A DNA stretch of 48,875 nucleotides from a virus. Below, piece by piece: positions 1,431 through 47,530 of this stretch (its first letter is position 1; each line of letters opens with the position of its first letter). The notes under the pieces were generated by a model. That model was not told where the DNA came from. It ran no database searches and saw only the letters and a program-made list of their open reading frames with translations. The translations under genes were made by a program, and so were the position numbers. The stretch covers positions 1 through 48,875 of IMG/VR virus record IMGVR_UViG_3300009537_000023. One strand, given 5' to 3'.

Positions 1431-3386
1431 TTGGAGCCTATAGATTTCCTCAAGCTCGTCTGGAACGGGCAAGAGGGCTTTGTCTTTCTTCCACGAAAGG
1501 CTAAGCGTTGGTCAGAAGGCTCGGCCTTCGAGTGGCCGCAGGATGCTGACAAGATAGAGGCCCACATTGAACGACATTCATCAAAAGCCGACCTGTACTA
1601 CACGCCAAATACTTTCAGTCAACCTGATAGACGGCGTGAGTATGTCAAGAACCCTCATTGGCTCTACGCCGATCTTGATACAGTATCGCCATCGAAACTG
1701 GCGGTCAGGCCCCAGCTTGCGGTACAGTCATCGCCTGGAAGGTTTCAATCTTTATGGCGCCTCGCTAGAGCTATCGACCCGGGTAAACATGAGACCTACA
1801 ACCAAAGGCTGACATATGCCACAGGAGCAGACAGGGGTGGATGGGATCTTACACAGGTACTTCGTATACCCGGGACAATCAACCACAAGTATCCGGGTCG
1901 AGTTAAGGTTCGACTTGCCTGGAGCGAGCCAGATAAAACATCGCTTACCAAGGTCAAGAAGTTCCTTGACGGTGTTGAGGCTAATCTTGAGAGCTTGGGT
2001 CCCATTGTACCGCCTGATCTTCGCTTACCAGCAGAGTCAAGTAAGGATTTACGCAAGCGGTTCAGCGGAGCTTTTGATGCCCGAACCAAAGAGCTCCTCG
2101 ATCAGACAGAAGAACCACCAGTAGGTGAAAGATCAGACAGGCTGTGGGAGTTAGAGTGCCGCCTGCTAGAGATTGGCCTCGAGCCCGAGGAGGTTTTCGT
2201 TGTCGTTAAGAATTCGGTCTGGAACAAATACATACAACGCCCAGATGGTGACTTGGCACTATGGCGGGAGGTGCAGAAGGCTCATCTTCATGTTGGCATT
2301 GTCATCCAAGAGAGCGTGGCACCAGTTAGTAATGGGCCTACACGTGCCCGACCAAGAGTGCTTAGTTACGCCGACATTCTGGGATCCGCAATTCGAGAAC
2401 CAGATTGGGCAATTGAGGAGTGGTGGACGTTGGGCTCGCACGGTATTCTGGCTGGACTTCCAAAATCATTCAAGAGCCTGGTCGCTACAGATATGGCCGT
2501 TTCTCTTGCAAGTGAAACGCCATTCCTGGGTCAGTTCAGCGTTAACCCAAGAGCGGTGGGTCCGGTTCTCATGGTCCAGCAGGAGAATAGCCTCGCACTG
2601 GTCCGTGATCGCCTCCTTAAAATCAGCCATAGCCGGGGGTTGCAGACAGGTACTGCATCCTTACACGATGCCTCGATAGATTTCAAGCCGCCGCCATCAA
2701 TACCGATCCTGTTTTACAACGACTTCGGTTTTGATATGACCAATGGAGATGACCGAGAATCCATAGAAGAAGTTATCCGTAATAATGGTGTGAAGACGGT
2801 GTTCTTTGATCCATTATATTTGATGATTGGTGGTGCAGATGAGAACGTGGCTAAGGAAATGCGTCCGATACTCACATGGCTCCTACGGATTAGGAACCTA
2901 TACAACTGTGCGGTGGTGGTCATTCACCACTGGGGTAAGAGTCAACCGGGCAGGGGTGGTCGTGGAGTTGGAGGCACCCGACTCCTCGGGTCTACGACGA
3001 TTTACGGCTGGCTCGAAGCAGCCTTATACCTGGAGGCAAGACACTCTACCTTGGACGGCGGGGGAGTACAGGTGGTGGTTGAGCGTGAGTTTCGGGAGAG
3101 ACCCTCAGCGCCGCCTATGGCTTTCGATTTGTCGATGGCCGACGTGGGCAAACTCGGATATGAGTGGTCAGGCGTGGGCGCAGTTGGTACAACCAACCGA
3201 CTCATTGAGGCAATTCAGAAGGCGGGGCCGAAGGGAGCAACTCTAGCCTTCGTTAGAGGTCAACTCGAATGGGGGCAGAAGAAAGCCAGAAAGGAGATAG
3301 ATGCCCTGATAGAAGAAGGAATTGTGTATGAGGAGCAGACGGGGAAGAGCAAGCGTGTCTTCCTGAGACCAGGATTTGGAGACTAA
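1431..3386 (+). CDS. bifunctional primase-polymerase (prim-pol/RepB-like) plus RepA/RecA-like helicase ATPase
   Basis: The N-terminal half has LYADLD (acidic metal motif), QSSPGRFQSLW and LRIPGTINHKY (prim-pol motifs). The C-terminal half has GLPKSFKS (Walker-A-like), VFFDPLYLM (Walker B) and VVVIHHWGKS, as in AAA_25/RepA-type proteins. TTG start. Confidence 0.8.
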   Translation: MEPIDFLKLVWNGQEGFVFLPRKAKRWSEGSAFEWPQDADKIEAHIERHSSKADLYYTPNTFSQPDRRREYVKNPHWLYADLDTVSPSKLAVRPQLAVQSSPGRFQSLWRLARAIDPGKHETYNQRLTYATGADRGGWDLTQVLRIPGTINHKYPGRVKVRLAWSEPDKTSLTKVKKFLDGVEANLESLGPIVPPDLRLPAESSKDLRKRFSGAFDARTKELLDQTEEPPVGERSDRLWELECRLLEIGLEPEEVFVVVKNSVWNKYIQRPDGDLALWREVQKAHLHVGIVIQESVAPVSNGPTRARPRVLSYADILGSAIREPDWAIEEWWTLGSHGILAGLPKSFKSLVATDMAVSLASETPFLGQFSVNPRAVGPVLMVQQENSLALVRDRLLKISHSRGLQTGTASLHDASIDFKPPPSIPILFYNDFGFDMTNGDDRESIEEVIRNNGVKTVFFDPLYLMIGGADENVAKEMRPILTWLLRIRNLYNCAVVVIHHWGKSQPGRGGRGVGGTRLLGSTTIYGWLEAALYLEARHSTLDGGGVQVVVEREFRERPSAPPMAFDLSMADVGKLGYEWSGVGAVGTTNRLIEAIQKAGPKGATLAFVRGQLEWGQKKARKEIDALIEEGIVYEEQTGKSKRVFLRPGFGD

Positions 3387-3849: not shown

Positions 3850-4258
3850 TCAGTTTGAGGTATTGAGACAGCACCTGGAAAGAATGGAGGGCAAGCTGAA
3901 CCAGATACTTGACCATCTGGGAGCAGACCTTGACTTGAGTGAGGAGGCTGACCCCGGACCAGGAAAGAATCCTGTACCTCGCAAAAACCCAGCGGCAACT
4001 AGAACCCATGTTGAGGTTCATACCGTAAGCGGAGATGTAGAGATGGTGCCATGGACCGAGATAGATGATCGGATTATCGAAGCCGTTAGGCTTAGCTCCG
4101 AACGTCAGACTCAGTGGGAGCTTTACCGTGATCCCAATGGCATGATTCGAGTCTCTGTGGACGCCGCCATAGCTCAGGAATTGCGTACGATCGATCGATC
4201 AGATCAAGCTCCTGTGCCTAACGTTCAGGGCTTCGATGCTCTGGGTGTGGATGAGTAA
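3842..4258 (+). CDS. hypothetical protein (138 aa)
   Basis: ORF track. Tightly packed, with its ATG overlapping the end of the previous gene. Confidence 0.5.
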   Translation: MASQFEVLRQHLERMEGKLNQILDHLGADLDLSEEADPGPGKNPVPRKNPAATRTHVEVHTVSGDVEMVPWTEIDDRIIEAVRLSSERQTQWELYRDPNGMIRVSVDAAIAQELRTIDRSDQAPVPNVQGFDALGVDE

Positions 4259-5723
4259 GTTCAAGCCCAAGGTCAAGTCTTATGACCATCAGAGGAAGTT
4301 TGTAAAGTGGGTATGGAACAAAACAAAGTACCCTGGCGTTGGGGATTCGGGTGGTGGCGCCTTCTTCGACCCAGGTACTGGGAAAACCAAGACTGCCTAC
4401 GACTTTATATCTGCTTCCTACGTCCACAGGAAGATGAGGCGGGTCCTAGTGATCTGCCCGATCAATGCGATCCAAGTCTGGGACGCTCAGGCGGATGAGC
4501 ATATCCGAGATGAGATTCCATTTCGAGTGATGATCCCCGAGGGAACCATTGCAGAGAAGACCGAAACCGTGAGCAACTGGAAAAGCATTGCGGATGATGA
4601 TGACCTGATGATTGTGGTCTTGAACTATGCAGCCGTGATAAAGCGAGACAAGAAGTGGGCCATCATGAAAACCCTCGAGGCCTATAACCCAGACCTTGTC
4701 GTGGTCGATGAAAGCCACCATATTAAGAACGCCACCGCCAAACAGAGCAAGGCTGTTCACAGGGTGTGTGAGAAAGCCGAGCATGTGATGATCCTGACAG
4801 GTACACCGATAGGCAAGAATTATCTGGATCTTTACAGCCAGCTGAAAGCCATAGATCCTGACATCTGGAAAGCAGACTGGACTAAGACAGGTACTATGTC
4901 ATGGACCAATTTCAGGAACGAGTACGGCATCTTCGGGGGCAGAACTGGTTACGAACTGAAGGGCTATCGCAACCTCGATGATCTGCGAGACCGCTACATG
5001 CCTCATATTCGTACCGCTCGCAAAGAGGACATACACGATATGCCGAAGGTCACAGACACCATTGTTCCTGTGGAGATAGGTGCCTCCGCTCGCCGGGTCT
5101 ATGATGTCCTCGCTGAAGAAGGTTTAGTAGTCCACAAAAGACACCTTATAGATGCGCCGATACCGCTCACCAAGCTGTTGAGGCTACAGCAGATCACAGG
5201 AGGATGGGTACATGACGAACACGGTGAGGTCGTGGAAGTTCAGAGGGACAAGTTATCCATACTGGCCGATTTACTTTCAGACCTCCACTCCGCTGGCCAG
5301 TCGGTTGTCGTGTTTGCTCGGTTCCTCGCCGAGCTTGAAGCGATTTCCGCAGTTAGTCCTTATAAGTGGGTTCAGTCGATACAAGGAGGTGTATCTCAGC
5401 AGCAGAGAAAGTCCCGGGTTGTTGCCTTTTCAGGAAGCAATGATCCGAAGATGTTGGCCATCCAAATATCCGCAGCAGAGGCCTTAGATGGATTACAAAC
5501 CAATTGCTCCTACGGGGTTTTTTATTCGACGGATTACAGTCTCATCCACTGGAACCAAGCGAGAGGACGTATCGATAGAGTTGGACAGAGAAGGCCGGTT
5601 ACTTTCTATCACCTGCAGGTCAAAGAAAGCGTTGATAGCCTCATATTTCAGGCCCTTAGGGACAAAAAAAACATCGAAAGGATCGTGATGAATGATCCGG
5701 CCGTACTTCTCAGGGGTTTGTAG
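4236..5723 (+). CDS. SNF2-family DNA-dependent ATPase/helicase
   Basis: DPGTGKTKTA (motif I), VVVDESHHIKN (motif II, DExH), LTGTPIGKNYLDLYSQL (motif III), QARGRIDRVGQ (motif VI). An alternative start is ATG 4251. Confidence 0.85.
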   Translation: MLWVWMSKFKPKVKSYDHQRKFVKWVWNKTKYPGVGDSGGGAFFDPGTGKTKTAYDFISASYVHRKMRRVLVICPINAIQVWDAQADEHIRDEIPFRVMIPEGTIAEKTETVSNWKSIADDDDLMIVVLNYAAVIKRDKKWAIMKTLEAYNPDLVVVDESHHIKNATAKQSKAVHRVCEKAEHVMILTGTPIGKNYLDLYSQLKAIDPDIWKADWTKTGTMSWTNFRNEYGIFGGRTGYELKGYRNLDDLRDRYMPHIRTARKEDIHDMPKVTDTIVPVEIGASARRVYDVLAEEGLVVHKRHLIDAPIPLTKLLRLQQITGGWVHDEHGEVVEVQRDKLSILADLLSDLHSAGQSVVVFARFLAELEAISAVSPYKWVQSIQGGVSQQQRKSRVVAFSGSNDPKMLAIQISAAEALDGLQTNCSYGVFYSTDYSLIHWNQARGRIDRVGQRRPVTFYHLQVKESVDSLIFQALRDKKNIERIVMNDPAVLLRGL

Positions 5724-5776: not shown

Positions 5777-6376
5777 ATGCCAATCATTGTTCTTGAGGGA
5801 CCCGACGAATCCGGGAAGACAACCCTCGCCACAAAGCTTCGAGACACCTTGGAGCCTGTGATTGATACCGAATACCAGCGCAGTCCTGTTCGTGAGCATG
5901 GCTGGTCTGAGCAGTACAACAACTACCTCATCAACCAGTCCAGAGCAATAGGTCATCTGCTTGTTCAGGACAGGATCCCAGAGATAAGCGAGTCGGTCTA
6001 TGGCTTCATGCGAGGTGAGCCTCGTACTCATGGCTGGGTTTATGAAGCAGGCGACTGGTTTCATCAGCCGATATTCATGGTCTTTTGTGAGGGGCCAGGT
6101 ATCCTTCAAACCACACACAAGGATGCAGAAGGTCTTGCAATAGCCCACGCTGAGGTGGCCTTGTTATATGACTACACCTATTGGCTACTTGAACAGACCT
6201 CCATCATGGCACGGATGACTGAGTTCAAGGTGGTCAAGTACAACCGCTTCAGTGATGACCAGTCGGAGTTCTTCTGGAGTCTTCTCCAGTGGCTGACGTT
6301 CTGCTTCCCGCACCGTAGGGTTGAGTTCGTCAAAGCAGTAGCGCCTCTCATAGAAAGGAACCCAAATGAGCTTTGA
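5777..6376 (+). CDS. thymidylate-kinase-fold (d)NMP kinase
   Basis: P-loop IVLEGPDESGKTTLA at the N-terminus. VQDRIPEISESVYG resembles the TMK DR..S..AYQ motif. Confidence 0.7.
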   Translation: MPIIVLEGPDESGKTTLATKLRDTLEPVIDTEYQRSPVREHGWSEQYNNYLINQSRAIGHLLVQDRIPEISESVYGFMRGEPRTHGWVYEAGDWFHQPIFMVFCEGPGILQTTHKDAEGLAIAHAEVALLYDYTYWLLEQTSIMARMTEFKVVKYNRFSDDQSEFFWSLLQWLTFCFPHRRVEFVKAVAPLIERNPNEL

Positions 6377-6722
6377 AGGCGAGGCATGGTTGCCGGGCGA
6401 TATGCTCAACACCTTCCAGAATGTATGCCATAAGCCTTGGCTGGAGCACAACTTCCCACAGCAGCAGCCGCATGATGCCCTGCTTGGGCTAGTTGAGGAA
6501 GTAGGCGAGCTAGCTCATGCCCATTTGAAGATGGAGCAGGGGATTAGAGGCATGGATGATGAAATCAGGTTTAGAACCGATGCTTATGATGCCATCGGAG
6601 ATATCCTGATCTACCTTGCCAGCTACTGCAACACCAACGGCTTCGAGATGGACACAGCCCTTTACCGAGCATGGGAGGAGGTACGCAAACGTGACTGGCA
6701 AGAGCGACCAACTACGGGATGA
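6366..6722 (+). CDS. MazG-like all-alpha nucleoside triphosphate pyrophosphohydrolase
   Basis: LLGLVEEVGELAHAHLK...DAIGDILIYLASYC matches the paired EExxE / DxxxD helices typical of MazG/HisE-type NTP-PPases. Confidence 0.8.
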   Translation: MSFEGEAWLPGDMLNTFQNVCHKPWLEHNFPQQQPHDALLGLVEEVGELAHAHLKMEQGIRGMDDEIRFRTDAYDAIGDILIYLASYCNTNGFEMDTALYRAWEEVRKRDWQERPTTG

Positions 6723-6987
6723 TCGAGGAATATACCCGAAGTATGTGGTTTTCAAGCACCCAGCCTTTATAGCCGCTAGTTACACCGCAGTAGCCAGGGA
6801 GTTTTCAGAGGAGTTCAGCCCGGCCGTAGAACTTGTAGAAGTCGAGGACTTTGTGTTTGTCCTGAAGCCCCTGAAAGATCGAGCCGCCCGGTTAGCTATG
6901 GCTGTCTACGCAGAGGCAGTCCGTCACGAGAAGCCACGACTTGCTGCGGAGTTGAACGAGATTCTGGACGACTTCGATGGATCCTAA
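6691..6987 (+). CDS. hypothetical protein (~98 aa), GTG start
   Basis: The frame is open from 6616 but overlaps the MazG gene. GTG 6691 is the first plausible start. The body reads YVVFKHPAF...DFVFVLKPLKDRAARLAMAVYAEA. Confidence 0.45.
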   Translation: MTGKSDQLRDDRGIYPKYVVFKHPAFIAASYTAVAREFSEEFSPAVELVEVEDFVFVLKPLKDRAARLAMAVYAEAVRHEKPRLAAELNEILDDFDGS

Positions 6988-7201
6988 TACCGAGAAACTC
7001 TACACCCAGGAAGATGTGGAGAAGATGACAAATGAGGAGAAGTCAAAGCTCCTCTGGATTTCTCGCCGGGAGTATGAAGTCCTGAAGCATATTGAGGAGG
7101 GCAAGAGAAGAAAGGCTCTTGACAAGATGAGGCGTAAGGCAGAGAAGTCCAAAAGGCAGAAGCGTAAGGCCCAAAGACAAGCGAGGAAAAAGAACCGATG
7201 A
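6977..7201 (+). CDS. Lys/Arg-rich coiled-coil protein (74 aa)
   Basis: ORF track. C-terminus RRKAEKSKRQKRKAQRQARKKNR. Tightly packed between its neighbours. Confidence 0.45.
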   Translation: MDPNTEKLYTQEDVEKMTNEEKSKLLWISRREYEVLKHIEEGKRRKALDKMRRKAEKSKRQKRKAQRQARKKNR

Positions 7202-7380
7202 GGAAACCAAAACACATAAAGTCACCCCCACATCGGTGGGGTGATGGGAAGGTTCATCTACTAATCAAGGCCTCCGGCGGCTTCTATAAAGCCTGTGAAG
7301 GGATTACTAAAACTACTCCTTACCATCGAGGAGAAGAAACAACAGATCCCATCACCTGTAAAAGGTGCTTGAAAGGATGA
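7198..7380 (+). CDS. small Cys-containing protein (60 aa)
   Basis: ORF track. ATGA overlap with the previous gene. C..(n)..CKRC. Confidence 0.4.
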   Translation: MRKPKHIKSPPHRWGDGKVHLLIKASGGFYKACEGITKTTPYHRGEETTDPITCKRCLKG

Positions 7381-8225
7381 GCTTCAAGGTACTTAGAGCC
7401 CCAGACCTCACACAGCTATGGCATGATGTAGTCAGATGGCATCTATACAAGGAAGAAGTAGACCTTGATCTGAGCATCGGTACCAATCTGTACAACGTCA
7501 TCCTAGAAGCGGACTCGGCTGAGTACGACTTCAACCTGCAAGAGGTGTGGTTGAATAGTGCCCGATGGACCAGGCTCATCCGTGAGTACATCGATCCCTT
7601 GGACGCATCAGATTTTGTCCGCAATGCGAGGATCATCTTCGAGACAAAGGGAAAAAATGGAGTCATTACGAATATGCCTTTCCGGCCGGTTGAGCGTCGA
7701 GCGGATCTACGAAGGCACAAGTGGGGGAACTGCCTTTTGGCAGCGACATTTCGAGGCACACCACAGAGTGACGTCCGGCCCACACTTACCCTCCATTCCA
7801 GAGTTTCGTATAATGGGTATATGCTCGGACTCGACATGGGAATTGCTAATGTCCTTGCTAGAGAAATCACCGAAGGAGTACCGTCTGAGGTTAGAGTTCA
7901 ATGGCATCTTGATGTCACTCAACTCCACTCATTCAAATCCTTGCCCTATCTCTACACCCAGCCGGACTTGATGGAGGTGCTTGAGTCACGCCCTTCTGAG
8001 ATGGCAATGGTTGCTATGAAGTACCCTACTTGGGCTCGCATTCTGAAATGGTGGGAGAAGGTTCTTGAGTTCGACGGCACGAAGTCTGTGGAGGCAGAGT
8101 TGTATGGGCCCTTCCGACGCATCCGCAAACGTTATGCCGAGTACAAAGACGGCAAGCTAGTGCCGAGTGTTCACATCTCGGAACTGGACTTCAGCAAACT
8201 TGGAGAAAGCTATGACCCTAATTAA
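7377..8225 (+). CDS. divergent thymidylate-synthase-fold protein (paralog 1)
   Basis: WGNCLLAATFRG...PTLTLHSRVSYNGYMLGLDMGIANVL...VQWHLDVTQLH parallels the ThyA layout PCH..FQFYV...L.CQLYQRS.DVFLG.PFNIASYALL...GD.H.Y. The Cys is kept but the RS.D signature is degenerate. ATG 7377 overlaps the previous stop (ATGA); GTG 7365 is an alternative start. Confidence 0.55.
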   Translation: MSFKVLRAPDLTQLWHDVVRWHLYKEEVDLDLSIGTNLYNVILEADSAEYDFNLQEVWLNSARWTRLIREYIDPLDASDFVRNARIIFETKGKNGVITNMPFRPVERRADLRRHKWGNCLLAATFRGTPQSDVRPTLTLHSRVSYNGYMLGLDMGIANVLAREITEGVPSEVRVQWHLDVTQLHSFKSLPYLYTQPDLMEVLESRPSEMAMVAMKYPTWARILKWWEKVLEFDGTKSVEAELYGPFRRIRKRYAEYKDGKLVPSVHISELDFSKLGESYDPN

Positions 8226-8982
8226 GACCAACAATGTCAAGTATGCCTTGCACAACCTGAGGACAGAGTTCCTTCAGATGGGCAAGACAGTGGATCGAGG
8301 TGAATGGCAGAGTCTCAAAGACAGACCACAGAGCCAGGTCTTTGAGGTCCATGATGCGTCTTTCCGAGTCGTTGTTCCAGAAAGCGTGATCGGTTGGCAG
8401 AACGAGTGCAAGCCAAATCTTCCATGGGCTGAGGATCATTTTCAAGAGCGGGTCAGTGGTAAGCCATTGAACCCGGGCGAGCAGTACAAGAATTGGCCTT
8501 GGTACGAGCAAGGGGTCGAGGATCACAAACCCGGGGGCAAGTTCAGTCACACCTACATGGAAAGATTCTGGCCGTCTGGGTCTTTTGGAAATCTTGACCA
8601 TGTAGTTGAACTCCTAATTGATCGACCATTTACCCGACAGGCATACCTCACTGTATGGTGGCCCCACGATGCTCGTATAGCCCTTGAAGGTGAACGTGTG
8701 CCTTGTACGTTGGGCTATCACTTCCTTGCTTATCCGGGGCCGGACGATCGTCCCTTGCTACGGGCCACATACTTCATGCGGTCATGTGACTGGTTCCGTT
8801 ACCTGCGTGATGATCTTTACATGGCTGGCAGATTGCTTCAATGGGTGGCAAAGCAAACGAACATGGATCCTACCATGTTGACGATGCACATTGCCAATCT
8901 CCACATCTTCAACCAAGAAGTTCCTCGACTTCGCCAAGAACATGCGGATGCAGAGAAAGAGAGGTTGTCCCATGCTTTCTGA
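8212..8982 (+). CDS. thymidylate-synthase-family pyrimidine methylase/hydroxymethylase (dCMP-hydroxymethylase-like, paralog 2)
   Basis: LIDRPFTRQAYLTVWWP (the ..SRR...saWnp equivalent), VPCTLGYHFL (catalytic Cys strand), YFMRSCDWFRYLRDDLYMAGRL (QRS.D....PFN equivalent, with Asp where ThyA has Asn), MHIANLHIF (GD.H.Y equivalent). RBS GGAGAAAG lies before ATG 8212. Confidence 0.75.
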   Translation: MTLIKTNNVKYALHNLRTEFLQMGKTVDRGEWQSLKDRPQSQVFEVHDASFRVVVPESVIGWQNECKPNLPWAEDHFQERVSGKPLNPGEQYKNWPWYEQGVEDHKPGGKFSHTYMERFWPSGSFGNLDHVVELLIDRPFTRQAYLTVWWPHDARIALEGERVPCTLGYHFLAYPGPDDRPLLRATYFMRSCDWFRYLRDDLYMAGRLLQWVAKQTNMDPTMLTMHIANLHIFNQEVPRLRQEHADAEKERLSHAF

Positions 8983-9532
8983 CCATCATTTCTTAGCAGT
9001 GGCTCATATCGTCGCCGACGCCGGGACTTGTTCGAGGCTCAAAGTAGGGGCAGTCCTGGTATATGCCCGGCGCATTATTTCCACAGGATACAACGGGGCA
9101 CCTGCGGGAATGCAGCATTGTGACCATATCCATGCGGATAAACAAATGTGGGATCAAGGAGGAAAGGGATGCGATACCGCAGTCCATGCCGAGGTCAATG
9201 CCATTGCGTTCGCTGCGAAGCACGGAGTAGCGACCACTGGGTCCACTTTGTATACCACAGATTCGCCGTGCGTATCGTGCGCCCAACTAATCATCAATGC
9301 TGGCATAAAGGAGGTGAAGTATGGCAGAGAGTATCGAATCCCCGCAGGCATCATTCTCCTTGAAAGAGCTAGCATCAGAACTGAAAGGCTTGGCGAACCC
9401 CAACTGCAACTTGTGTCCGTTACATCAGGAGACGGAGAGGGTGTGCATCCCAGTCAACATGCCGACGAGGCGTTTGACCAAGGATGGTCAGAGTATGCGG
9501 CTTCTCGTCGTGGGGGAAGCGCCCGGATATAA
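8972..9532 (+). CDS. dCMP deaminase (zinc-dependent cytidine/deoxycytidylate deaminase family)
   Basis: VHAEVNAI (H-A-E zinc/catalytic motif), TDSPCVSCAQLIINAGIKEV (PCxxC), STGYNGAPAG. I chose ATG 8972 (MLSDHH...) over ATG 8891. The last 212 nt overlap the polymerase gene. Confidence 0.85.
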   Translation: MLSDHHFLAVAHIVADAGTCSRLKVGAVLVYARRIISTGYNGAPAGMQHCDHIHADKQMWDQGGKGCDTAVHAEVNAIAFAAKHGVATTGSTLYTTDSPCVSCAQLIINAGIKEVKYGREYRIPAGIILLERASIRTERLGEPQLQLVSVTSGDGEGVHPSQHADEAFDQGWSEYAASRRGGSARI

Positions 9533-11801
9533 TGAGGAACAAACGGGTCGTCTATTCTCAGGCAATGCCGGGCAACTACTTGATCAGGCTCTAGGGGAAG
9601 TAGGGCTTAAACGTGATTGGTTCTTCGTAACCAATGCGGTCAAGTGTCGCCCGGCAGAGAACCGAACTCCATCAGCGAAGGAGGTTCGGACTTGCTCATC
9701 GACCTACCTCAGCCAGGAAATCGCTGCCATTGAACCACAGTACGGGTTGGTATTGGGCAACAGTGGGTGCCAAGCGGTCTTCGGCAAGAAAGGTATAACG
9801 AGACTCAATGGACAGGTGATCGAGAAGTACGGTGTGAAGTGGGTCGCCGCATTCCACCCGGCTGCTGTCTTGAGGAACCCTCGCTATCGCAAGTCCTTCA
9901 TGGGGGCCCTGTTAGTATTGGCCCGCTTGATCCGTGATGAAGAAGGTGCACCTAATACCGATACGGTTCTAGTCAATGACAAGGAGACCCTCAGACAACT
10001 CCTTACTGAGTTGGAAAATGGTGAGGTAGCTTCGGTTGACGTAGAAACCTGGTCTTCTCATCCAAAGGTGGGGAGATTCAAGGGCGGTGGTCTAGCGTGG
10101 TGGGCTGATGACTTCTGTGTGACCACTATCAACTTCTCCTTTAAGCCGGGCTATGCCTATGTTCTACCCCTAGCCCATGATAAGGCAAGATGGAAAGACT
10201 GGACTAAAGTCCGTGACATCATCAAGCCATACATGGAAGCTCTGCCTTACTGGGTGATGCACAATGGCAAATATGACTCCAAATGCCTAGAGATGATTGG
10301 CATTCACATGCGCCACAGTTTTGATACGATGGGAGCCGAGTATGCGCTGGATGAGAACAACGTCAAAGACCTGGGTTTCCTTAGCCAAGTATATCTTGCG
10401 GCCCCCGAGTACAAGGAGTTGGTCGACAAGACCAATCTCAAGTCAGAGGATCTCGACCTCATGGCAGAGTACGGAGGAAAAGACGCCGACTACACCTATC
10501 GGCTGCGACCGCTACAGATTCGACGGCTGAAGACAGAGGGTCTATCACGACGGCTTTACGAGAAGCTACTGCACCCCTCAGATTTAGTCCTGACAAACGT
10601 GGAGCTCCGAGGCATGCCAGTGGATCATTCCAAGCTTGTGGAACGAGCAAGAGAGTGTGACCAGAACATAGCCGAAGCGAAGGAGAAGATTTATGCCACC
10701 ACAGGTTGGGAATTTAACATTAATTCCCCAGCCCAACTCGGTGATATCCTTTTCAACCGACTGGACTTCCCAGTTCTGGAAACAACAAAAACCGGTGCTC
10801 CTTCAACCAGAGAAGGCGTACTTATCGCTCTCAAAACCCTTGATGATGAGGGACTCATTGAGCGGATCCTTGACTATCGAAAGTGGAAAGGTTACCGTTC
10901 ACGATACCTCAACCCGTGGCCGGAACTGGCTGATAGTGAATGGCGGCTGCATCCTCACTTCAAACCGTTTCATACTGTCACTGGGAGGCTATCCTGCGAG
11001 CATCCTAATATGCAACAAGTCCCTAGAGATACATTTATCCGTGGGATTATTGGGGGTAATCCTGGTTGGGTGATTCTCGAAGCGGACTACAGCCAAGCCG
11101 AGATGCGCCTGGCGGGTCACTACTCACAGGATTCAACCATGCTGAGGGTCTTCAATACAGGTCGTGACGTTCACATGGAGACGGCAATGTCTATCACAGG
11201 TCTGGCTCAACATGAGGTGACATCTGAGCAGAGAAAGATGGCGAAGGCTGTTAACTTCGGCTTCTTGTATGGCATGGGCTGGCACAAGTTCATGGACTAT
11301 GCAAAGGAGAACTATGAGTTGGACGTTTCTGAAGCTGAAGCGAAGGTGGCTCGCAAGGAGTTCTTCCGACAGTTCCGTAGTTTACCTGGGTGGCATGATC
11401 GTCAACGTAAGAAGGCCCGCAAGAACGGTTATGTACTATCCGCTATCGGTAGAAAGCGTCACCTACATGATATTCGGTCCACAAATGAGGGCATACGTCA
11501 AGAGGCTGAACGCCAGGCCATCAACTCACCAGTTCAAAGCCTTGCATCGGATATGATGCTCCTCGCCATGATACAACTGGAAGAGCAGCTTGACCCAAAC
11601 GAGTGCCGCATCATCTCCACAGTACATGACTCCATTCTGTTCGAGGTGAGAGAGGATCTGGTCTACAAGTACATTCCGATAGTTAAGGCTGGTCTCGAGG
11701 AGGTGCCGCTAGAAAAGGAATTTGAATGTATACTCACCGTGCCTATTGTGGCTGACATCAAATATGGTTCCCACTGGTCAGAGGGAGCAGTTGAGGTTTG
11801 A
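9321..11801 (+). CDS. family A DNA polymerase with 3'-5' exonuclease and an N-terminal family-4 uracil-DNA glycosylase domain
   Basis: UDG4: CNLCPLH, VVGEAPGYNEEQTGRLFSGNAGQLL, VKCRP, AFHPAAVLRNP. Exonuclease: VDVETWS, HNGKYDSKCL, YGGKDADYTYRL. Polymerase: ILEADYSQAEMRLAGHYS (motif A), RKMAKAVNFGFLYGM (motif B), VHDSILFEV (motif C). Strong RBS AAGGAGGTGAAGT before the ATG. Confidence 0.9.
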   Translation: MAESIESPQASFSLKELASELKGLANPNCNLCPLHQETERVCIPVNMPTRRLTKDGQSMRLLVVGEAPGYNEEQTGRLFSGNAGQLLDQALGEVGLKRDWFFVTNAVKCRPAENRTPSAKEVRTCSSTYLSQEIAAIEPQYGLVLGNSGCQAVFGKKGITRLNGQVIEKYGVKWVAAFHPAAVLRNPRYRKSFMGALLVLARLIRDEEGAPNTDTVLVNDKETLRQLLTELENGEVASVDVETWSSHPKVGRFKGGGLAWWADDFCVTTINFSFKPGYAYVLPLAHDKARWKDWTKVRDIIKPYMEALPYWVMHNGKYDSKCLEMIGIHMRHSFDTMGAEYALDENNVKDLGFLSQVYLAAPEYKELVDKTNLKSEDLDLMAEYGGKDADYTYRLRPLQIRRLKTEGLSRRLYEKLLHPSDLVLTNVELRGMPVDHSKLVERARECDQNIAEAKEKIYATTGWEFNINSPAQLGDILFNRLDFPVLETTKTGAPSTREGVLIALKTLDDEGLIERILDYRKWKGYRSRYLNPWPELADSEWRLHPHFKPFHTVTGRLSCEHPNMQQVPRDTFIRGIIGGNPGWVILEADYSQAEMRLAGHYSQDSTMLRVFNTGRDVHMETAMSITGLAQHEVTSEQRKMAKAVNFGFLYGMGWHKFMDYAKENYELDVSEAEAKVARKEFFRQFRSLPGWHDRQRKKARKNGYVLSAIGRKRHLHDIRSTNEGIRQEAERQAINSPVQSLASDMMLLAMIQLEEQLDPNECRIISTVHDSILFEVREDLVYKYIPIVKAGLEEVPLEKEFECILTVPIVADIKYGSHWSEGAVEV

Positions 11802-11908: not shown

Positions 11909-12919
11909 GTGCCACTGAATATATCCCACTCGGAACTGAAAACGTTCCGCCGATGTAAGCGCCAGTATTTTTATAAGGTAGTTGAGGGGCTAGAGCCCCG
12001 CCTTACAGACCCCAAACTCAAGTTCGGTATTTGGTTCCATGAATTGATGCGAGCCTATTACGAAGGCAAAGACTGGAAGAAGGCACATGAACAGGAACTC
12101 AAGAAATTCAACAACCTTTTCCTAGAGGAGAGAGAGTTCTACGGCGATCTACCTGACCTGGCCGAGCGCATGATGTTCTCCTACCTGTGGACATATCGCA
12201 ACGAAGACCCCGAGTGGGAGGTTCTCTATGTGGAGGAGAACTTCAAGGTCAAATTTACCGAAGGTGATGTATTCGGGTTCAAACCTGACTTGATTGTTGC
12301 CGACAAGCGTGGCGATGTATGGGTAGTGGATCACAAGACCACTCGATCTATACCCAGTAGTGAATGGCGACTGGTCGATCTGCAATCCACGCTGTATCCC
12401 TGGGCATTGAGAGAGGGGATGGACTTAGATATAAAGGGGTTCATCTTCAACTATATCCGTCGCAAAGCACCGAGCATCCCCAAGATCAACAAGGACGGCT
12501 CAATTAGTCGGGCAAGAGTCGATACCGATTATCCAACAATGGCTAAGTTCCTCATCGAATACTTCGAGGTTGAGACGGTGAAAGAACTGCCCACAGAGTG
12601 GAAGAAGCGCCTGGCTAATCTCAAATTGGAATCAAAGTTTTTCAAGAGGACTCGTATTACCAAAGATGATGCCCTCATCAATCGCCAGATCGAGGAGTTC
12701 TCATACACCGCTCAGGAACTTGAATCGTGGCTTGAGCTATCAGAGGAACAAGACATCGACCCGTGGGTACGCACGATGATCCCGTCCTGTGAATGGGACT
12801 GTGAGTTCTATGACCTATGCACCCTTGAATTACTAGGCCAGGACAGCAAGTTCATGCGGCGTAGTAAATACCAGCCGAGTCAATACCAGAAGGAGAGAAG
12901 GCGTGGCAGCGAAGACTAA
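11909..12919 (+). CDS. PD-(D/E)XK exonuclease with a Cas4/AddB-like Fe-S cysteine set
   Basis: FKPDLIVADKRGDVWVVDHKT (D...D-x-K nuclease core). One N-terminal Cys (FRRCKRQY) plus the C-terminal CEWDCEFYDLC. GTG start. Confidence 0.8.
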   Translation: MPLNISHSELKTFRRCKRQYFYKVVEGLEPRLTDPKLKFGIWFHELMRAYYEGKDWKKAHEQELKKFNNLFLEEREFYGDLPDLAERMMFSYLWTYRNEDPEWEVLYVEENFKVKFTEGDVFGFKPDLIVADKRGDVWVVDHKTTRSIPSSEWRLVDLQSTLYPWALREGMDLDIKGFIFNYIRRKAPSIPKINKDGSISRARVDTDYPTMAKFLIEYFEVETVKELPTEWKKRLANLKLESKFFKRTRITKDDALINRQIEEFSYTAQELESWLELSEEQDIDPWVRTMIPSCEWDCEFYDLCTLELLGQDSKFMRRSKYQPSQYQKERRRGSED

Positions 12920-13739
12920 GGGTAAGATCGACAAGCCCATGAAGGCTAGTGCTAAGCAATTGGCTAGACTTAAAGCCATTGAATCCATGATGCAGCCTGT
13001 GGGCTCAATCGTGGAGCTTCTTCACAGCCTGATCTGGGGTCGAGTCAAGTCTGGCAAGACTAAGTTCATTGCCTCTGGTCCCAAACCTGTAATTTTCGCC
13101 GCAGAAGATGGCACACGAACCATTCGTGACTTTCCTGATGTAACCGTTTTCCCTGTCACTGGCGATGGTAAGTATATTCCGCCAAGATGGAAGCACGCTC
13201 GGGATTTCATCTGGTACCTAGACAAAGCCGATCACGACTTTGGCACAGTAGGCGTGGACACAATGACTGCCCTGTCTCGTATTGCCATTCGATTCGTTAC
13301 CAAAGATGAGGAGTTGAGGGATGATCTGAGAGCCAAGGGCACCATGGATTATCGGGTGTGGAATCGAGTGACCCGCCTGATTACCGAGTTCATGGAAGAC
13401 TTGGAGGGAGTGTGCAAGGCCAGAGGAATGCACCTGGTGTATACCTGCCAAGAATTATCTTTGGATGAGGAGAAAGCATTGCGTGAGGGTTCATCAATTG
13501 TGCCTGATCTAACACCTAAATTGAGAGGAGCCATTCTTGAAAAGCCCGACATCATCGCAAGGACAATTATAGAGGAGGAAGAAAGTGAGGATCTCAGCAA
13601 AGCCACCCTGAAGTATGGCATGGTGTTCAAGCACCACGAATGGCCCGTAGGTTTACGGGAACCAGCAAGCAAGAAACCGATGCCCGCCAGAGTTTATGGC
13701 GACATCACAATCCCCAAGCTCCTAAGGAGGCTTAGTTAA
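12903..13739 (+). CDS. RecA-fold ATPase, Sak4/AAA_24-like recombination protein
   Basis: Walker A GRVKSGKTKF and Walker B GTVGVDTM. It sits between the exonuclease and the SSB-like gene. Confidence 0.65.
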   Translation: MAAKTKGKIDKPMKASAKQLARLKAIESMMQPVGSIVELLHSLIWGRVKSGKTKFIASGPKPVIFAAEDGTRTIRDFPDVTVFPVTGDGKYIPPRWKHARDFIWYLDKADHDFGTVGVDTMTALSRIAIRFVTKDEELRDDLRAKGTMDYRVWNRVTRLITEFMEDLEGVCKARGMHLVYTCQELSLDEEKALREGSSIVPDLTPKLRGAILEKPDIIARTIIEEEESEDLSKATLKYGMVFKHHEWPVGLREPASKKPMPARVYGDITIPKLLRRLS

Positions 13740-14333
13740 ATGGCCAAAAAGCCAAAGATCACGAAGGAAAGCCTTGAGATTGACCTCACTGGCGTAGAGG
13801 CGTCAGAACGTAGGCGTAAGCAGCGCATTCCCGAGGGTGTGTACCTTGCCAAGGTTCTTGAGGTTGGACCCCACAAGTTCAACACTGGCAGCAAAGGCGT
13901 TCAGTGGGTCTTCTCCATTACTACGAACGGCAAGGGCAAGGGTGCCAGATTCTGGTACAACAATGCCTTGATTGATACAGATGGCAATGTCATGGAGAAT
14001 TCTCTGTGGTCTCTGCGTGGCGTTCTCCAGGCTCTTGAGCCCAAGGTGAAGATTCCCGACAAGCTGATGAAGATCCCATACGCCAAGCTGGTCGATCGAA
14101 CGGTCGCTCTGGAGATAGGCGACGATGAGTATGACGAGAAGATCCGCTCAACCATCATCGATGTGTTCCACCCATCTCTCATCGAGGACGAGACCGAAGA
14201 AGAGGATGAGGAAGAGAGCGAGGACGAAGAATGGGATGAAGATGAAGAGGAGGATGAAGACGAAGACGAGGATGAAGAAGAGGAGGAAGATGAAGAAGAG
14301 GAAGAATGGGATCTTGATGAGGACGAGCTATAG
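13740..14333 (+). CDS. putative ssDNA-binding protein with a very long acidic C-terminal tail
   Basis: A beta-rich N-terminal body (GVYLAKVLEVGPHKFNTGSKGVQWVFSI) is followed by about 45 residues that are almost entirely D/E, ending EWDLDEDEL. It lies in the recombination block. Confidence 0.55.
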   Translation: MAKKPKITKESLEIDLTGVEASERRRKQRIPEGVYLAKVLEVGPHKFNTGSKGVQWVFSITTNGKGKGARFWYNNALIDTDGNVMENSLWSLRGVLQALEPKVKIPDKLMKIPYAKLVDRTVALEIGDDEYDEKIRSTIIDVFHPSLIEDETEEEDEEESEDEEWDEDEEEDEDEDEDEEEEEDEEEEEWDLDEDEL

Positions 14334-14373
14334 TTGTGCTGGCTGGCAATAGGCACGTTGCTCACCAAGGAGG

Positions 14374-14406
14374 GAGGGCGGGAGAGATCCTGCCCTCTCT
14401 TTTTTC
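14374..14406 (+). terminator. candidate intrinsic terminator
   Basis: GAGGGC (14374-14379) pairs with GCCCTC (14392-14397), with a 12-nt loop. It is followed by TCTCTTTTTT. Confidence 0.4.
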
Positions 14407-14407
14407 C

Positions 14408-14725
14408 ATGACTGAAGCACGAATTACCACACAGATAATCAAAGCCCTAAAGAAACGTGGTGGCTGGTGGGTGAAGATTCACGGCTCAGCATTTCAGTCC
14501 GCAGGTATACCAGATATTATCGGCTGCTATCGTGGTATATTAGTGGCACTGGAAGTCAAGACTCCCGATACAGCGAAGAACGTCTCCGAGCGTCAACGGC
14601 ATGTTATGTCTCGTATCAGACAAGCAGGGGGGGTGCCACGAGTTGTGACGAGCGCCAAGGCAGCCTTAGAGGTCATTCGTGACGTAGACACAAGACTCGA
14701 CAAGTACGAAGGATGGTCATCATGA
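14408..14725 (+). CDS. VRR-NUC / Holliday-junction-resolvase-like PD-(D/E)XK nuclease
   Basis: IIKALKKRGGWWVKIHGS...GIPDIIGCYRGILVALEVKTP (D...E-x-K). The frame is open from GTG 14336. I prefer ATG 14408, although it has no clear RBS. Confidence 0.65.
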   Translation: MTEARITTQIIKALKKRGGWWVKIHGSAFQSAGIPDIIGCYRGILVALEVKTPDTAKNVSERQRHVMSRIRQAGGVPRVVTSAKAALEVIRDVDTRLDKYEGWSS

Positions 14726-19533: not shown

Positions 19534-20417
19534 TAGCTACCGTACCCTGCTAGTGCGAGCCTCTTGGTTTCCTTGAGGAGTGTGGCTCTCGATGTGTTCA
19601 CCCGATCAGCATAGCGAGCCTGATACCACTCCCCTGTTCGGAGAGCTAAGAATGGCGGAGAGTCCTGGGCTCTCTGATGCTGCTCCGCAGCCTTCATCTT
19701 GCTTCGAGACCTCTCCGAATCAACCATAAGTCTGTTCATGGCATAGTAGAACGGTAGGTCTGTCATGTATGGTCTCAATCCGCCTACAGCCTCAAGATCG
19801 TCAGCTTCAGCTACTTGAGTAAACCTCTCAGAGTAGACCACCCGGAATTCACCCGGAGGCAAAGCAGTCCTAAGCATGAGAGCCTTGCCAGTAGAAAAGT
19901 CCCCGGTGTCCGCATTGTCTACATAGATCCAATCGGCTATGGGCAGCCAGTATAGAGCAGCAGAATCCTGAAGGGCGTCTACTCTAAGGACATCAATAAC
20001 CTCATCAGGGAGACTGTACCCTATGATGGCAGGATTATATATAATGGTAGTAGCATTAACGGCATAGAGATCCCTACCAAACATATCTTCAAGGCACTCA
20101 TTAACCAGAGTGAGGACGTCGGACCTCAACATCCTCGGGTTTATGTAGATGGGGGCATTTTGAGCATGGGTAGTTGCAGTAGTACCTAACCATCCTCTTA
20201 TTACTGTGGCTATCTTATTGGTATCGTCTACCTCAGTTACCAGCATTAGTTCACTGCCTACCTCAGCAATAGTGGAGGGTCCCCAGGCATTGAGAATTCC
20301 TTGAAAGTTAAGGGCTGTAACGGAACTATTCATTGCTGTGGCCAGCACATCTGGCTGGTCAAGAATCCTAAAACCCTTCAGGACTCGATCAATTACCGTT
20401 GAGGTCAAGGTCGGCAT
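19533..20417 (-). CDS. virion structural protein (294 aa), possibly an adaptor or tail component
   Basis: Position only. Its stop codon overlaps the start codon of the downstream fibre gene. Confidence 0.4.
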   Translation of the reverse strand: MPTLTSTVIDRVLKGFRILDQPDVLATAMNSSVTALNFQGILNAWGPSTIAEVGSELMLVTEVDDTNKIATVIRGWLGTTATTHAQNAPIYINPRMLRSDVLTLVNECLEDMFGRDLYAVNATTIIYNPAIIGYSLPDEVIDVLRVDALQDSAALYWLPIADWIYVDNADTGDFSTGKALMLRTALPPGEFRVVYSERFTQVAEADDLEAVGGLRPYMTDLPFYYAMNRLMVDSERSRSKMKAAEQHQRAQDSPPFLALRTGEWYQARYADRVNTSRATLLKETKRLALAGYGS

Positions 20418-21132
20418 TTACCATCTTTCGGTAAATCGGAACGTTTTCCCGCTCAGCATAGTGCGGGTGGGACGGATCCATCAACGAGGTAACGTAATCC
20501 TCTTCCCCTACTATATGGAGTTTGATATGACCTATGACTAGGCTGGTATCTACGAAGGTAGGTATGCCTAATTTACCAGCGGTAAGACAGAAGGCAATAT
20601 CTTCTCCTATTGGCACATTGTTGTGCATTCCGAATGCGAACCAAGGCATGGGGTGATCTTTGCCCCTGGCCTCTCTTACAGCTAATGCTGCCCTGCGGGT
20701 TACAAGCAAACAGCCACCACCCGTACCATTAACCTCAACCAGGCTATTGGGCGGGTAATTCCACAGGACTTCCATCTGTGGAGTGCCTTCCTCACTTTCA
20801 CCTATGACGTACAGGTGAGGCCGCTTTGGGGAGTTAAAGCCACCAGTGAAATAAAGACCCCCCACAATCTCCTTACGATGGGCCATGAGTCTCTCGACCA
20901 TATCAACCCGAAGAACCTGATCTGTGTCGACCATCATCATGTAGTCAGCCGAAGTCTCATCGAGCCATACCTTAAAGAGACTGTTGCGACCATCATCTAC
21001 CTTAGGCCCACAGTGAATACCTATGGTAGACTGAATCCGTCGCTCCTCACGCATCAGCCGATCCTTAGCTGCCATGAAGATGCTGTCCACTTGGTCATCG
21101 TGGACGTACCCGAGTACTACTTGGTCATTCAA
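20389..21132 (-). CDS. GT-A fold (family-2-like) glycosyltransferase
   Basis: GPKVDDGRNSLFKVWLDETSADYMMMVDTDQVLRVDMVERLMAHRKEIVGGLYF has the R-N helix, a DxD motif (DTD) and the typical downstream vvgG.y segment. Confidence 0.65.
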   Translation of the reverse strand: MNDQVVLGYVHDDQVDSIFMAAKDRLMREERRIQSTIGIHCGPKVDDGRNSLFKVWLDETSADYMMMVDTDQVLRVDMVERLMAHRKEIVGGLYFTGGFNSPKRPHLYVIGESEEGTPQMEVLWNYPPNSLVEVNGTGGGCLLVTRRAALAVREARGKDHPMPWFAFGMHNNVPIGEDIAFCLTAGKLGIPTFVDTSLVIGHIKLHIVGEEDYVTSLMDPSHPHYAERENVPIYRKMVNADLDLNGN

Positions 21133-46914: not shown

Positions 46915-47150
46915 TGGAGAATTTTGTTATAGGTCTGTTGATAACCAATCTGGTCACTCTGACCATTACCTATAGATATGCCACCAAGGCGGGCATTCTG
47001 ATGGAGTTGATCGAGAAAAGTCCGTCTATTTGCTTCGAGTGCGGGGCCAATCACCAGCGAATAGCTGTTGCGGCATTTGCTCATAGGTTCACCCCTATAA
47101 AGGCCGTGATAGACCCCGGGTACCTCCGGCATGCCCAGGACCAAGAGTGA
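46914..47150 (+). CDS. small protein with an N-terminal TM helix (78 aa)
   Basis: MENFVIGLLITNLVTLTITY. Start and stop codons overlap (TAATG). Confidence 0.45.
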   Translation: MENFVIGLLITNLVTLTITYRYATKAGILMELIEKSPSICFECGANHQRIAVAAFAHRFTPIKAVIDPGYLRHAQDQE

Positions 47151-47179
47151 CCGTCACAAACACCCAGATAGGAGCATAT

Positions 47180-47530
47180 ATGGCCAAAGAAAGCGAGGAG
47201 CATCTCACCTTGACAAGATACCTATCCCTGACCTCGGATGCCCAGTTCATAGCATTGCTGTGGAAAAATAAGGCCGAGTGTACCCGGCGGATAGAAGCCC
47301 ATCCTGAGCATTACCGGGCTATGGATTGGTTCCCTATTGCCACAGGGGAGGTTCCATTTCATGTGCAGGAGGTATGTAATGTGTGCCCCGTTAGGGTTGA
47401 ATGCCTGGCGTATGCCGTCTTTACCCATCAATCCGACGGGATATGGGGAGGAAGATCTGTAAAGTCCATAAAGCGAATCCGAAGAAAGATACAGGCCGCA
47501 ATAAGGAGGCAAAATGTCCGACCGAGATGA
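47180..47530 (+). CDS. whiB: WhiB-like (Wbl) Fe-S transcription factor
   Basis: Four Cys in Wbl spacing (AEC ... VCNVCPVRVEC), followed by the signature GIWGG turn and a basic C-terminal tail (KRIRRKIQAAIRRQ). RBS AGGAG lies 6 nt before ATG 47180. Confidence 0.8.
   Translation: MAKESEEHLTLTRYLSLTSDAQFIALLWKNKAECTRRIEAHPEHYRAMDWFPIATGEVPFHVQEVCNVCPVRVECLAYAVFTHQSDGIWGGRSVKSIKRIRRKIQAAIRRQNVRPR

Follow-up and report, generated by a model that had tools for sequence, protein, structure and literature searches.

Phage Xp12 carries 5-methylcytosine (5mC) in place of cytosine in its DNA, and the association of a deaminase, a pyrophosphatase, DNA polymerase I (PolA) and a thymidylate synthase (TS) homolog with Asp at position 177 in the ThyA numbering, hereafter TS(Asp177), is already known as a signature of modified-cytosine phages. 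On modified-cytosine contigs, the neighbourhood of the deaminase includes TS(Asp177), a pyrophosphatase of the PRA-PH/MazG type, PolA and an exonuclease (bioRxiv 10.1101/2024.12.05.627091), and a neighbourhood of an all-alpha nucleoside triphosphate (NTP) pyrophosphatase, a nucleoside monophosphate (NMP) kinase and a deoxycytidine monophosphate (dCMP) deaminase has also been associated with modified-cytosine DNA (PMC8670742; bioRxiv 10.1101/2024.12.05.627091). In this work, we analysed a metagenomic phage contig (IMG/VR record IMGVR_UViG_3300009537_000023), whose whole length of 48,875 bp with about 51% G+C is referred to below as the window. At positions 5777-9532 it bears a block of genes for a kinase, a MazG-type protein, three small open reading frames (ORFs), two TS-fold proteins named here TSa and TSb, and a zinc dCMP deaminase, followed by a PolA fused to uracil-DNA glycosylase (UDG) and exonuclease domains. 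This gene set matches the published deaminase neighbourhood and thus supports the reading of the block as a pre-replicative pathway modifying deoxycytidine nucleotides at C5, to which we assign a probability of about 0.55.

The evidence that carries this reading comes primarily from TSb. The protein belongs to the thymidylate synthase/dCMP hydroxymethylase superfamily (PF00303, 39.9 bits vs. a cut-off of 24.3, E = 3.7e-10), and in Foldseek its AlphaFold2 (AF2) model (confidence score pLDDT 87.9) matched many structures of TS, MilA and AfhB with E about 1e-14 and template-modelling (TM) scores of 0.64-0.75. Residues Cys165, Arg190, Asp193, Asp201, Arg162 and Thr166 of TSb correspond to C146, R166, D169, N177, L143 and H147 of ThyA, respectively, with Tyr at 94; the catalytic P-C165 and the phosphate-binding R190-S-C-D193 (RS-x-D) are invariant. 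In a profile built from 40 homologs, Asp201 aligns with the Asn of E. faecalis TS (PFNIAS) and with the Asp of both MilA and HY126 AfhB. MAFFT alignments with E. coli ThyA and with T4 gp42 (NC_000866) and the Xp12 TS, the latter two sequences being taken from GenBank records, gave an identical register for Asp201. The E. coli ThyA sequence in these alignments agrees closely, from end to end, with the canonical gp67 of phage Triscuit. An earlier sequence-only reading of the same DNA had put an Asp at the uracil-discriminating Asn in the product of 8212..8982 by eye, and the profile and the multiple alignments agree on this assignment.

The Asp at N177 was invariant in the 40 metagenomic TSb homologs, in 54 IMG/VR orthologs and in phages Muddy, NoShow, JacoRen57, Triscuit, PMBT14 and P744. 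The motifs R-x-P-C-[TS] and RS-x-D-x7-D were present in 54 of the 55 IMG/VR TSb orthologs, the 55th being a truncated protein. Arg162 (ThyA 143) is invariant across all TSb orthologs, and position 147 is occupied by Thr or Ser, never by His. The marks of a canonical ThyA, Asn177 and His147, are thus missing from TSb, while Triscuit gp67 alongside has PFN and PCH. Of the marks of T4-type dCMP hydroxymethylases, TSb has Asp177 (T4 D179) and the Cys (T4 C148) but carries Arg162 in place of an acidic residue at 143. According to literature cited in PMC8670742, N177D switches TS to dCMP and strongly disfavours dUMP; moreover, Asp177 and a non-His residue at 147 best separate the TS homologs on modified-cytosine contigs from the others (PMC8670742; PMC13326640). 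Judged by these residues, TSb reads as a cytosine-specific enzyme, with dCMP as the predicted substrate, and not as a 5-hydroxylase. The mark of 5-hydroxy-dCMP synthases is D169N (PMC13326640), and this role was rejected for TSb because D169N is absent and RSCD keeps the invariant Asp193.

Beyond the active site, every TSb ortholog, also in the Pseudomonas and Yersinia phages, contains a strongly conserved insert, LPWAE(D/E)HFxERVxGxPxNPG (residues 70-90 of TSb), which is missing from ThyA, T4 gp42 and the Xp12 TS. When characterised enzymes were scored against the TSb profile, the Xp12 TS reached 48 bits, AfhB 39, MilA 37, E. coli ThyA 24 and T4 gp42 16. TSb ends about 23 residues past the H-x-F motif, where ThyA and the Xp12 TS run on for at least 55. 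In the TS mechanism, the ThyA-like C-terminal closing segment is needed for hydride transfer; nevertheless, the short C-terminus is not decisive against a methylase, because the best curated match of TSb is itself a short, methanogen-type thymidylate synthase (TIGR03283, 42 bits, far under the cut-off).

The second protein, TSa, has no match in Pfam or NCBIfam and no TS signature at the sequence level. Its AF2 model (pLDDT 94.6) shows a TS-like fold with an extra C-terminal helical domain. All 50 PDB matches listed by Foldseek are of the TS family (thymidylate synthases, MilA, T4 dCMP hydroxymethylase and HY126 hydroxylase) with TM scores of just 0.4-0.5, the top one among those listed being the HY126 dCMP hydroxylase 9iqu (E = 6.5e-7, TM 0.42/0.53). 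The matches in BFVD are also of the TS family and include PMBT14 gp48 (E = 8.9e-10, TM 0.61/0.65). The presence of two TS-fold proteins, as previously proposed, is thereby confirmed, for TSb by PF00303 and structure and for TSa by AF2 and Foldseek. The TSa family, a small one with 283 representative clusters among 1.84 billion, is uncharacterised, and TSa is not a td-like dTMP synthase.

Seven residues do not vary among 31 diverse TSa members (23-37% identical), namely Y71, G117, C119, S141, R142, W176 and R248, and at least 90% of the members keep D153. A weak hhalign alignment of the diverse TSa profile with the TSb profile (E = 0.08) puts C119, R142 and D153 opposite C165, R190 and D201 of TSb, and by their position in the secondary structure the three residues match the catalytic Cys, the phosphate Arg and the base-reading Asp. 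A TSa profile made of close homologs gave no meaningful alignment with the TSb profile, and a search of the TSa profile against PDB sequences returned only spurious matches to A20/TNFAIP3. No equivalent of Asp169 is evident in TSa, since the hhalign alignment has a gap there, with neither Asp nor Asn. Because its Cys, Arg and Asp correspond to those of TSb, TSa looks like an active cytosine-nucleotide enzyme, possibly one that is not folate-dependent.

At the nucleotide level, the module matched none of the 50,697 phage records searched, and its relatives come to light in protein comparisons only. TSb homologs were found in 123 phage GenBank records (E <= 1e-5), about 90 of them from actinophages, and TSa homologs in 85, every host being actinobacterial; the actinophage proteins are 35-44% (TSb) and 29-33% (TSa) identical to those of the window. 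The order helicase, kinase, pyrophosphatase, TSa, TSb, deaminase, PolA is kept in the Mycobacterium phages Muddy (gp50-gp44), NoShow and JacoRen57 (the last with an unannotated ORF at the deaminase position), as well as in Microbacterium phage Triscuit, Pseudomonas phage PMBT14, Yersinia phage P744 and metagenomic contigs. Orthologous modules also occur in the Gordonia CT cluster (GTE2, Azira) and in Streptomyces phage Zuko. The sequence-only reading knew of no such module in WhiB-encoding actinophages; at the level of sequence this is wrong, as the module is syntenic in Muddy and in Gordonia CT-cluster, Streptomyces and Microbacterium phages, where it is read as thymidylate synthesis. The annotations of the genes in the relatives are thymidylate kinase, dUTPase, hypothetical protein, thymidylate synthase and dCMP deaminase, and a genome announcement calls them "thymine synthesis" genes (PMC10353413).

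The co-occurrence of the two TS-fold proteins is strict. Among the 56 IMG/VR loci, all retrieved with TSa, TSb lies directly downstream of TSa in 55, and the 56th contig ends at TSa. The same adjacency is seen in cultured phages and, in the form of structural homologs, in PMBT14, whose gene at the TSa position has the G-x-C-M, Y-R-S and A-D-L motifs in common with TSa. Since the deaminase, kinase and pyrophosphatase slots vary, TSa and TSb next to PolA make up the invariant core. The module of Triscuit (L004 5977-9054; genes 64, 66 and 67) contains TSa, an Asp177 TSb ortholog and a canonical Asn177 ThyA, the latter two both annotated as "thymidylate synthase". That Triscuit has its own canonical ThyA beside TSb is a strong argument against either TSa or TSb being the dTMP synthase there.

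What is new, then, is the obligate TS-fold partner TSa, the TSb clade with Arg143 and the LPWAE(D/E)HFxERV insert, and the implication for cultured phages, Muddy included. A bolder idea, which we regard as tentative and rather unlikely to hold in full, is that TSa founds a new TS-fold catalytic class and, either within a heteromer with TSb or in consecutive steps with it, makes a novel C5-substituted deoxycytidine, other than the 5-methyl, 5-hydroxymethyl and 5-hydroxy derivatives, in the DNA of a widespread lineage that includes Muddy.

The eight ORFs of the block overlap or abut, with overlapping stop and start codons, and lie between an SNF2 helicase gene and polA (Table 1). The five enzymes which the sequence-only reading had seen in one orientation were all found on the + strand at the coordinates given there, with their families checked by profile searches and, for TSa, by structure. 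Most IMG/VR loci, as well as Muddy, NoShow and Triscuit, have the SNF2 helicase in this place too; it is a conserved upstream neighbour and represents context rather than a pathway member.

Table 1. Genes of the block and its immediate neighbours in the window.
Feature	Coordinates	Strand	Evidence or remarks
SNF2-family DNA helicase	4236..5723	+	Pfam SNF2-rel_dom 3.9e-23, Helicase_C; phrog_62 4e-93
P-loop NMP kinase, thymidylate-kinase-like	5777..6376	+	P-loop GPDESGKTT; phrog_761 5.6e-9
MazG-type all-alpha NTP pyrophosphatase	6366..6722	+	PF03819 22.4 bits; phrog_715 7e-11
Small ORF 1	6691..6987	+	GTG 6691 or TTG 6616 as start; partial phrog_9572 match
Small ORF 2, 74 aa, lysine/arginine-rich	6977..7201	+	no significant family
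Small ORF 3, 60 aa, Cys-containing	7198..7380	+	no family
TSa, highly diverged TS-fold protein, phrog_13667	7377..8225	+	AF2 model, Foldseek
TSb, thymidylate-synthase/dCMP-hydroxymethylase superfamily	8212..8982	+	PF00303 3.7e-10; AF2 model, Foldseek
Zinc dCMP/dCTP-family deaminase	8972..9532	+	PF00383 1.2e-22; phrog_174 3e-50
DNA polymerase I fused to family-4 UDG and 3'-5' exonuclease	9321..11801	+	Pfam UDG 3.6e-28, DNA_pol_A_exo1 1.9e-12, DNA_pol_A 5e-100

As a single sequence, the kinase stays below the family cut-offs (Pfam Thymidylate_kin, E = 0.016, 15.4 vs. 27; TIGR00041, E = 0.0015, 18.2 vs. 83). When eight orthologs were combined into a profile, the best match was 2AXP, the kinase-like YorR protein of SPbeta, over the full length in an alignment of about 160 residues (E = 4e-7), the next matches being vaccinia thymidylate kinase and guanylate kinases. 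These data support an NMP-kinase fold, while membership in the thymidylate kinases is not supported at the curated cut-offs.

The MazG-type protein is barely over its family cut-off of 22 bits, and its motifs EEVGELAHAH and DAIGDILIYL represent the acidic EExxE...D metal-binding helices. Its closest solved structure is the dCTP pyrophosphatase 1 (DCTPP1), a weak match (E = 0.006), and this relationship with a dCTP pyrophosphatase counts for the cytosine reading. Pairwise comparison with the PRA-PH of Xp12 revealed no significant similarity (best E = 0.02). Elsewhere the pyrophosphatase slot is filled by dUTPase_2-family proteins (Muddy, Triscuit, P744) or by PRA-PH (PMBT14, Xp12); MazG as an ortholog of Muddy gp48 was rejected, gp48 being a dUTPase_2.

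The three small genes noted earlier at 6691..7380 do exist, but the slot between MazG and TSa differs in content and length among relatives, and these ORFs are not conserved. Residues 75-119 of small ORF 1 match phrog_9572, annotated as "sulfatase-modifying factor enzyme" (E = 1.2e-8), and this is its sole match; if started from TTG 6616, the ORF would overlap the 3' end of mazG by about 107 nt. In the closest IMG/VR relatives (loci L012-L016), the number of small ORFs in this slot varies, and in L012 there is no room for a kinase between the helicase and MazG. Because in these loci the kinase slot is empty and the small ORF count variable, neither the kinase nor any of the three small ORFs belongs to the core, to which they are accessory.

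The deaminase is a clear family member (PF00383, 80 bits) with the zinc motifs VHAEVNAI (HAE) and SPCVSCAQ (PCxxC); it also matches TIGR02571 ComEB (6e-31), under the cut-off, and its ATG is at 8972, not at 8969. Some phage deaminases convert 5-hydroxymethyl-dC (5hmdC) to 5-hydroxymethyl-dU (5hmdU) in vivo (bioRxiv 10.1101/2024.12.05.627091). One subgroup of loci (L022-L030, L047, L058) combines TSa with a more divergent TSb (motif RSCDFYKHWAKD) and a dUTPase_2-type pyrophosphatase.

The position of PolA is identical in all relatives. In the window, polA and the 3' end of the deaminase gene share 212 nt (9321-9532) in different frames if the polA ORF is taken to begin at its first ATG; in Muddy and NoShow this overlap is 26 and 59 nt, respectively. 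The long overlap may be real, because the overlapped N-terminus holds the UDG CxxC (CNLCPLH), which is also found in the metagenomic relative L010. The UDG motif GEAPG and the Cys motif are intact in the window (9321-9900) and in L010, and in L009 GEAPG is kept, the gene as called starting past the Cys motif. The UDG region of Muddy and NoShow is degenerate, with FMGCAPS and FMGVAPS (L001 7219-7550 and L002 7231-7560, respectively).

Taken together, the results suggest the following scheme for the modification of deoxycytidine nucleotides. MazG would hydrolyse dCTP, and dUTP as well, to the monophosphate; acting as a dCTPase/dUTPase, it would supply dCMP to the pathway and deplete the canonical dNTP, lowering the dCTP pool. 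Cys165 of TSb would then attack C6 of dCMP, with Asp201 reading the N3/N4 face of cytosine, and a one-carbon unit would be moved from methylene-tetrahydrofolate to C5 to give 5-hydroxymethyl-dCMP or 5-methyl-dCMP. The P-loop kinase, which would phosphorylate the modified dNMP and/or dTMP, and then the host NDP kinase would raise the product to the triphosphate, and the adjacent PolA would build it into the phage DNA. The deaminase would supply thymidylate, either by making dUMP from dCMP for the host ThyA/ThyX or by turning 5-methyl-dC nucleotides into dTMP/dTTP. TSa may act as a second cytosine-nucleotide enzyme, in a heteromer with TSb or at a further C5/C6 step. On this reading, the phage DNA probably contains a modified cytosine.

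The product may be 5-hydroxymethyl-dC, 5-methyl-dC as in Xp12, or another derivative. In favour of a hydroxymethyl product are the polar residue at 143, Thr147 as in gp42 and MilA, the short gp42-like C-terminus, the failure to find a dihydrofolate reductase (DHFR) and the T4-like arrangement in Triscuit. In favour of a methyl product are the Xp12 methylase as the top-scoring characterised relative, the same pyrophosphatase-TS-deaminase arrangement and no evident glycosyltransferase; besides, a missing dTMP synthase would make sense with deaminases that turn 5-methyl-dCTP into dTTP. At position 143, acidic residues correlate with hydroxymethyl products (PMC13326640) and hydrophobic ones are linked to methyl products, a rule which is a correlation only and not a clean one, because the Xp12 TS, which forms 5mC, shows Asn at this position when aligned without gaps. 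The sequence-only reading favoured a T4-style modification of dC: a cytosine-specific C5 pathway remains the best interpretation, but the hydroxymethyl part is not established, given Arg at 143, the score of 16 bits for gp42 and no pairwise similarity of MazG to gp56.

Several observations weigh against the cytosine-modification pathway or some part of it. By profile score TSb is not close to any characterised enzyme, and with Arg at 143 it has neither a hydrophobic residue, as goes with methyl products, nor Asp/Glu, as goes with hydroxymethyl ones. Several positions of the hydrophobic folate pocket of ThyA (143, 172 and 176) are charged in TSb (Arg162, Arg196 and Asp200), so that the cofactor itself is not certain. 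MazG has no significant pairwise similarity to T4 gp56, which speaks against a T4-style pathway, and the dUTPase_2 in the pyrophosphatase slot of Muddy and others fits ordinary dUTP control equally well. The kinase is not in its slot in loci L012-L016, although their TSa is 70-74% identical to that of the window, and no zinc deaminase is detectable between TSb and PolA in the subgroup with the divergent TSb. Among the window ORFs scanned against families, no DNA-level tailoring enzyme or DNA glycosyltransferase was evident and no DHFR was found. Finally, in the literature searched, we found no DNA-modification study on Muddy, Gordonia CT phages, PMBT14 and P744, no paper noting the Asp of TSb or testing the DNA of these phages, no restriction or modification data in the P744 paper, and no report of unusual DNA, despite years of sequencing and laboratory work on Muddy and its relatives.

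Of the other explanations, the one that survives best is a uracil-free route to thymidylate, in which TSb would convert dCMP to 5-methyl-dCMP, the deaminase would turn it into dT nucleotides, and the Tmk-like kinase would act on dTMP, with little or no 5mC incorporated and the DNA largely unmodified. The conversion of 5-methyl-dCTP into dTTP has been demonstrated for a phage deaminase encoded beside TS(Asp177), and it has likewise been shown or proposed for Xp12-type phages and proposed for Xp12 itself (bioRxiv 10.1101/2024.12.05.627091). This route would fit the highest score of TSb vs. the Xp12 methylase, the thymidylate-kinase-like character of the kinase, the UDG domain fused to the polymerase and the window with no canonical TS. 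However, Xp12 combines the same logic with a complete replacement of C by 5mC, the deaminase-less subgroup retains TSa and TSb, and Triscuit has its own ThyA; in addition, TSb is devoid of the long C-terminal segment of ThyA and the Xp12 TS, and no DHFR was found. We consider the uracil-free route improbable.

Somewhat less probable still is the current GenBank/SEA-PHAGES reading of such genes as an ordinary thymidylate-supply operon, where dUMP would come from dUTP through the pyrophosphatase and from dCMP through the deaminase, TSb would methylate it to dTMP and the kinase would yield dTDP, giving more dTTP to a phage of lower G+C than its host. The four families do fit the canonical pathway, as annotated in Muddy, NoShow and Gordonia CT phages; most of the genomes are without another TS, the Muddy-type phages carry a dUTPase_2 protein, and the best curated family of TSb, TIGR03283, is a thymidylate synthase, even if at 42 bits the match is far under the cut-off. 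Against this stand the Asp at N177 in every complete ortholog together with Thr/Ser at 147, as N177D strongly disfavours dUMP (literature cited in PMC8670742), and the canonical ThyA beside TSb in Triscuit. The obligate second TS-fold enzyme would also be left unexplained.

The least probable explanation, and quite an unlikely one, is the replacement of thymine by 5hmdU through an SPO1-like dUMP hydroxymethylase or through deamination of 5hmdC nucleotides: classical phages of this kind do have a deaminase, a dUTPase/dTTPase-type pyrophosphatase, a kinase and a TS homolog, and some phage deaminases make 5hmdU from 5hmdC, but both TS-fold proteins of the window have Asp, not Asn, at the discriminating position, and no 5-HMU DNA kinase or other thymidine-hypermodification gene turned up in the ORFs scanned.

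Outside the block, the regions 1431-3386 and 11909-14725 encode further replication proteins common to Muddy-like and PMBT14-like phages, namely RepB-primase/AAA_25, a Cas4-like PD-(D/E)XK nuclease, AAA_24 (Sak4-like), DUF669 and an Hjc-type resolvase. Close to its right end, the contig bears genes for a WhiB-family regulator (47147-47530; PF02467, 3.8e-10) and a DUF5662 protein (47894-48352; 2.5e-37); the WhiB protein makes an actinobacterial host consistent with the sequence. On the - strand, among the virion genes, 20389-21132 encodes a protein of 247 aa with a weak match to the "glycosyltransferase" family phrog_34859 (2.2e-8) and a stronger one to the unknown family phrog_1574, and without a Pfam match. 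It may glycosylate virion proteins or DNA, or do neither of these, and it was not counted as a DNA-tailoring enzyme because of its location among virion genes and the lack of Pfam support.

If the cytosine-modification reading is true, an unreported modified cytosine would be present in many well-sampled phages, namely those of Gordonia (CT), Mycobacterium (AB, including Muddy), Streptomyces, Microbacterium, Pseudomonas, Serratia and Yersinia, and dozens of "thymidylate synthase" annotations would be wrong. Muddy is a therapeutic phage, and the modification would bear on host range and on restriction and CRISPR evasion in the phage therapy of mycobacterial disease, as well as on cloning, rebooting and nanopore sequencing of these genomes. 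TSa represents a compact and experimentally tractable unknown within a very well-understood enzyme fold, and the cultured phages along with co-expression assays in E. coli make the question testable.

The comparison with the known systems shows which features the block has in common with each of them. The T4 hydroxymethyl-dC pathway (gp56, gp42, gp1, cd, td) comprises the same four enzyme classes. Just as TSb, T4 gp42 has the catalytic Cys, Asp at ThyA N177 and a short C-terminus, and T4 td beside gp42 is paralleled by the canonical ThyA beside the TSb ortholog in Triscuit. Unlike TSb with its Arg, gp42 has Asp145 at ThyA L143 and is the weakest characterised match to the TSb profile; the kinase of the window is Tmk/YorR-like in its profile matches. 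T4 has no equivalent of TSa, and the window has no evident glucosyltransferase and a MazG without pairwise similarity to gp56.

In the 5-methyl-dC pathway of the Xp12/PaMx74 type, PRA-PH, TS(Asp177) and a deaminase are adjacent, as in the window, and a deaminase acting on 5-methyl-dC nucleotides would make a separate dTMP synthase unnecessary. The Xp12 TS differs from TSb in keeping the long ThyA-like C-terminal segment and in having Pro at 147 and Asn at 143, where TSb has Thr and Arg; moreover, Xp12 has DHFR beside the cluster and no TSa. The flavin-dependent 5-hydroxy-dCMP synthases (RB69 gp48, DLP3 gp80 and HY126 AfhB; PDB 9iqc/9iqu) rank first among the listed structural matches of TSa as well as of TSb and resemble them in Cys, Asp177 and short length. 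They have D169N (PMC13326640), whereas TSb keeps Asp193 and TSa has a gap there, and no arabinose or glycosyl genes are evident in the window. The CMP 5-hydroxymethylase MilA of mildiomycin synthesis (PDB 5b6d; 37 bits) is a cytosine-specific TS fold with Cys, Asp177 and Thr147 (ACT), like TSb, but it has Asp at 143, uses a ribonucleotide substrate and belongs to bacterial secondary metabolism. As to the cultured relatives, they vary in the family of the pyrophosphatase, while the window has three extra small ORFs and retains the intact UDG motif set which has been lost in Muddy and NoShow.

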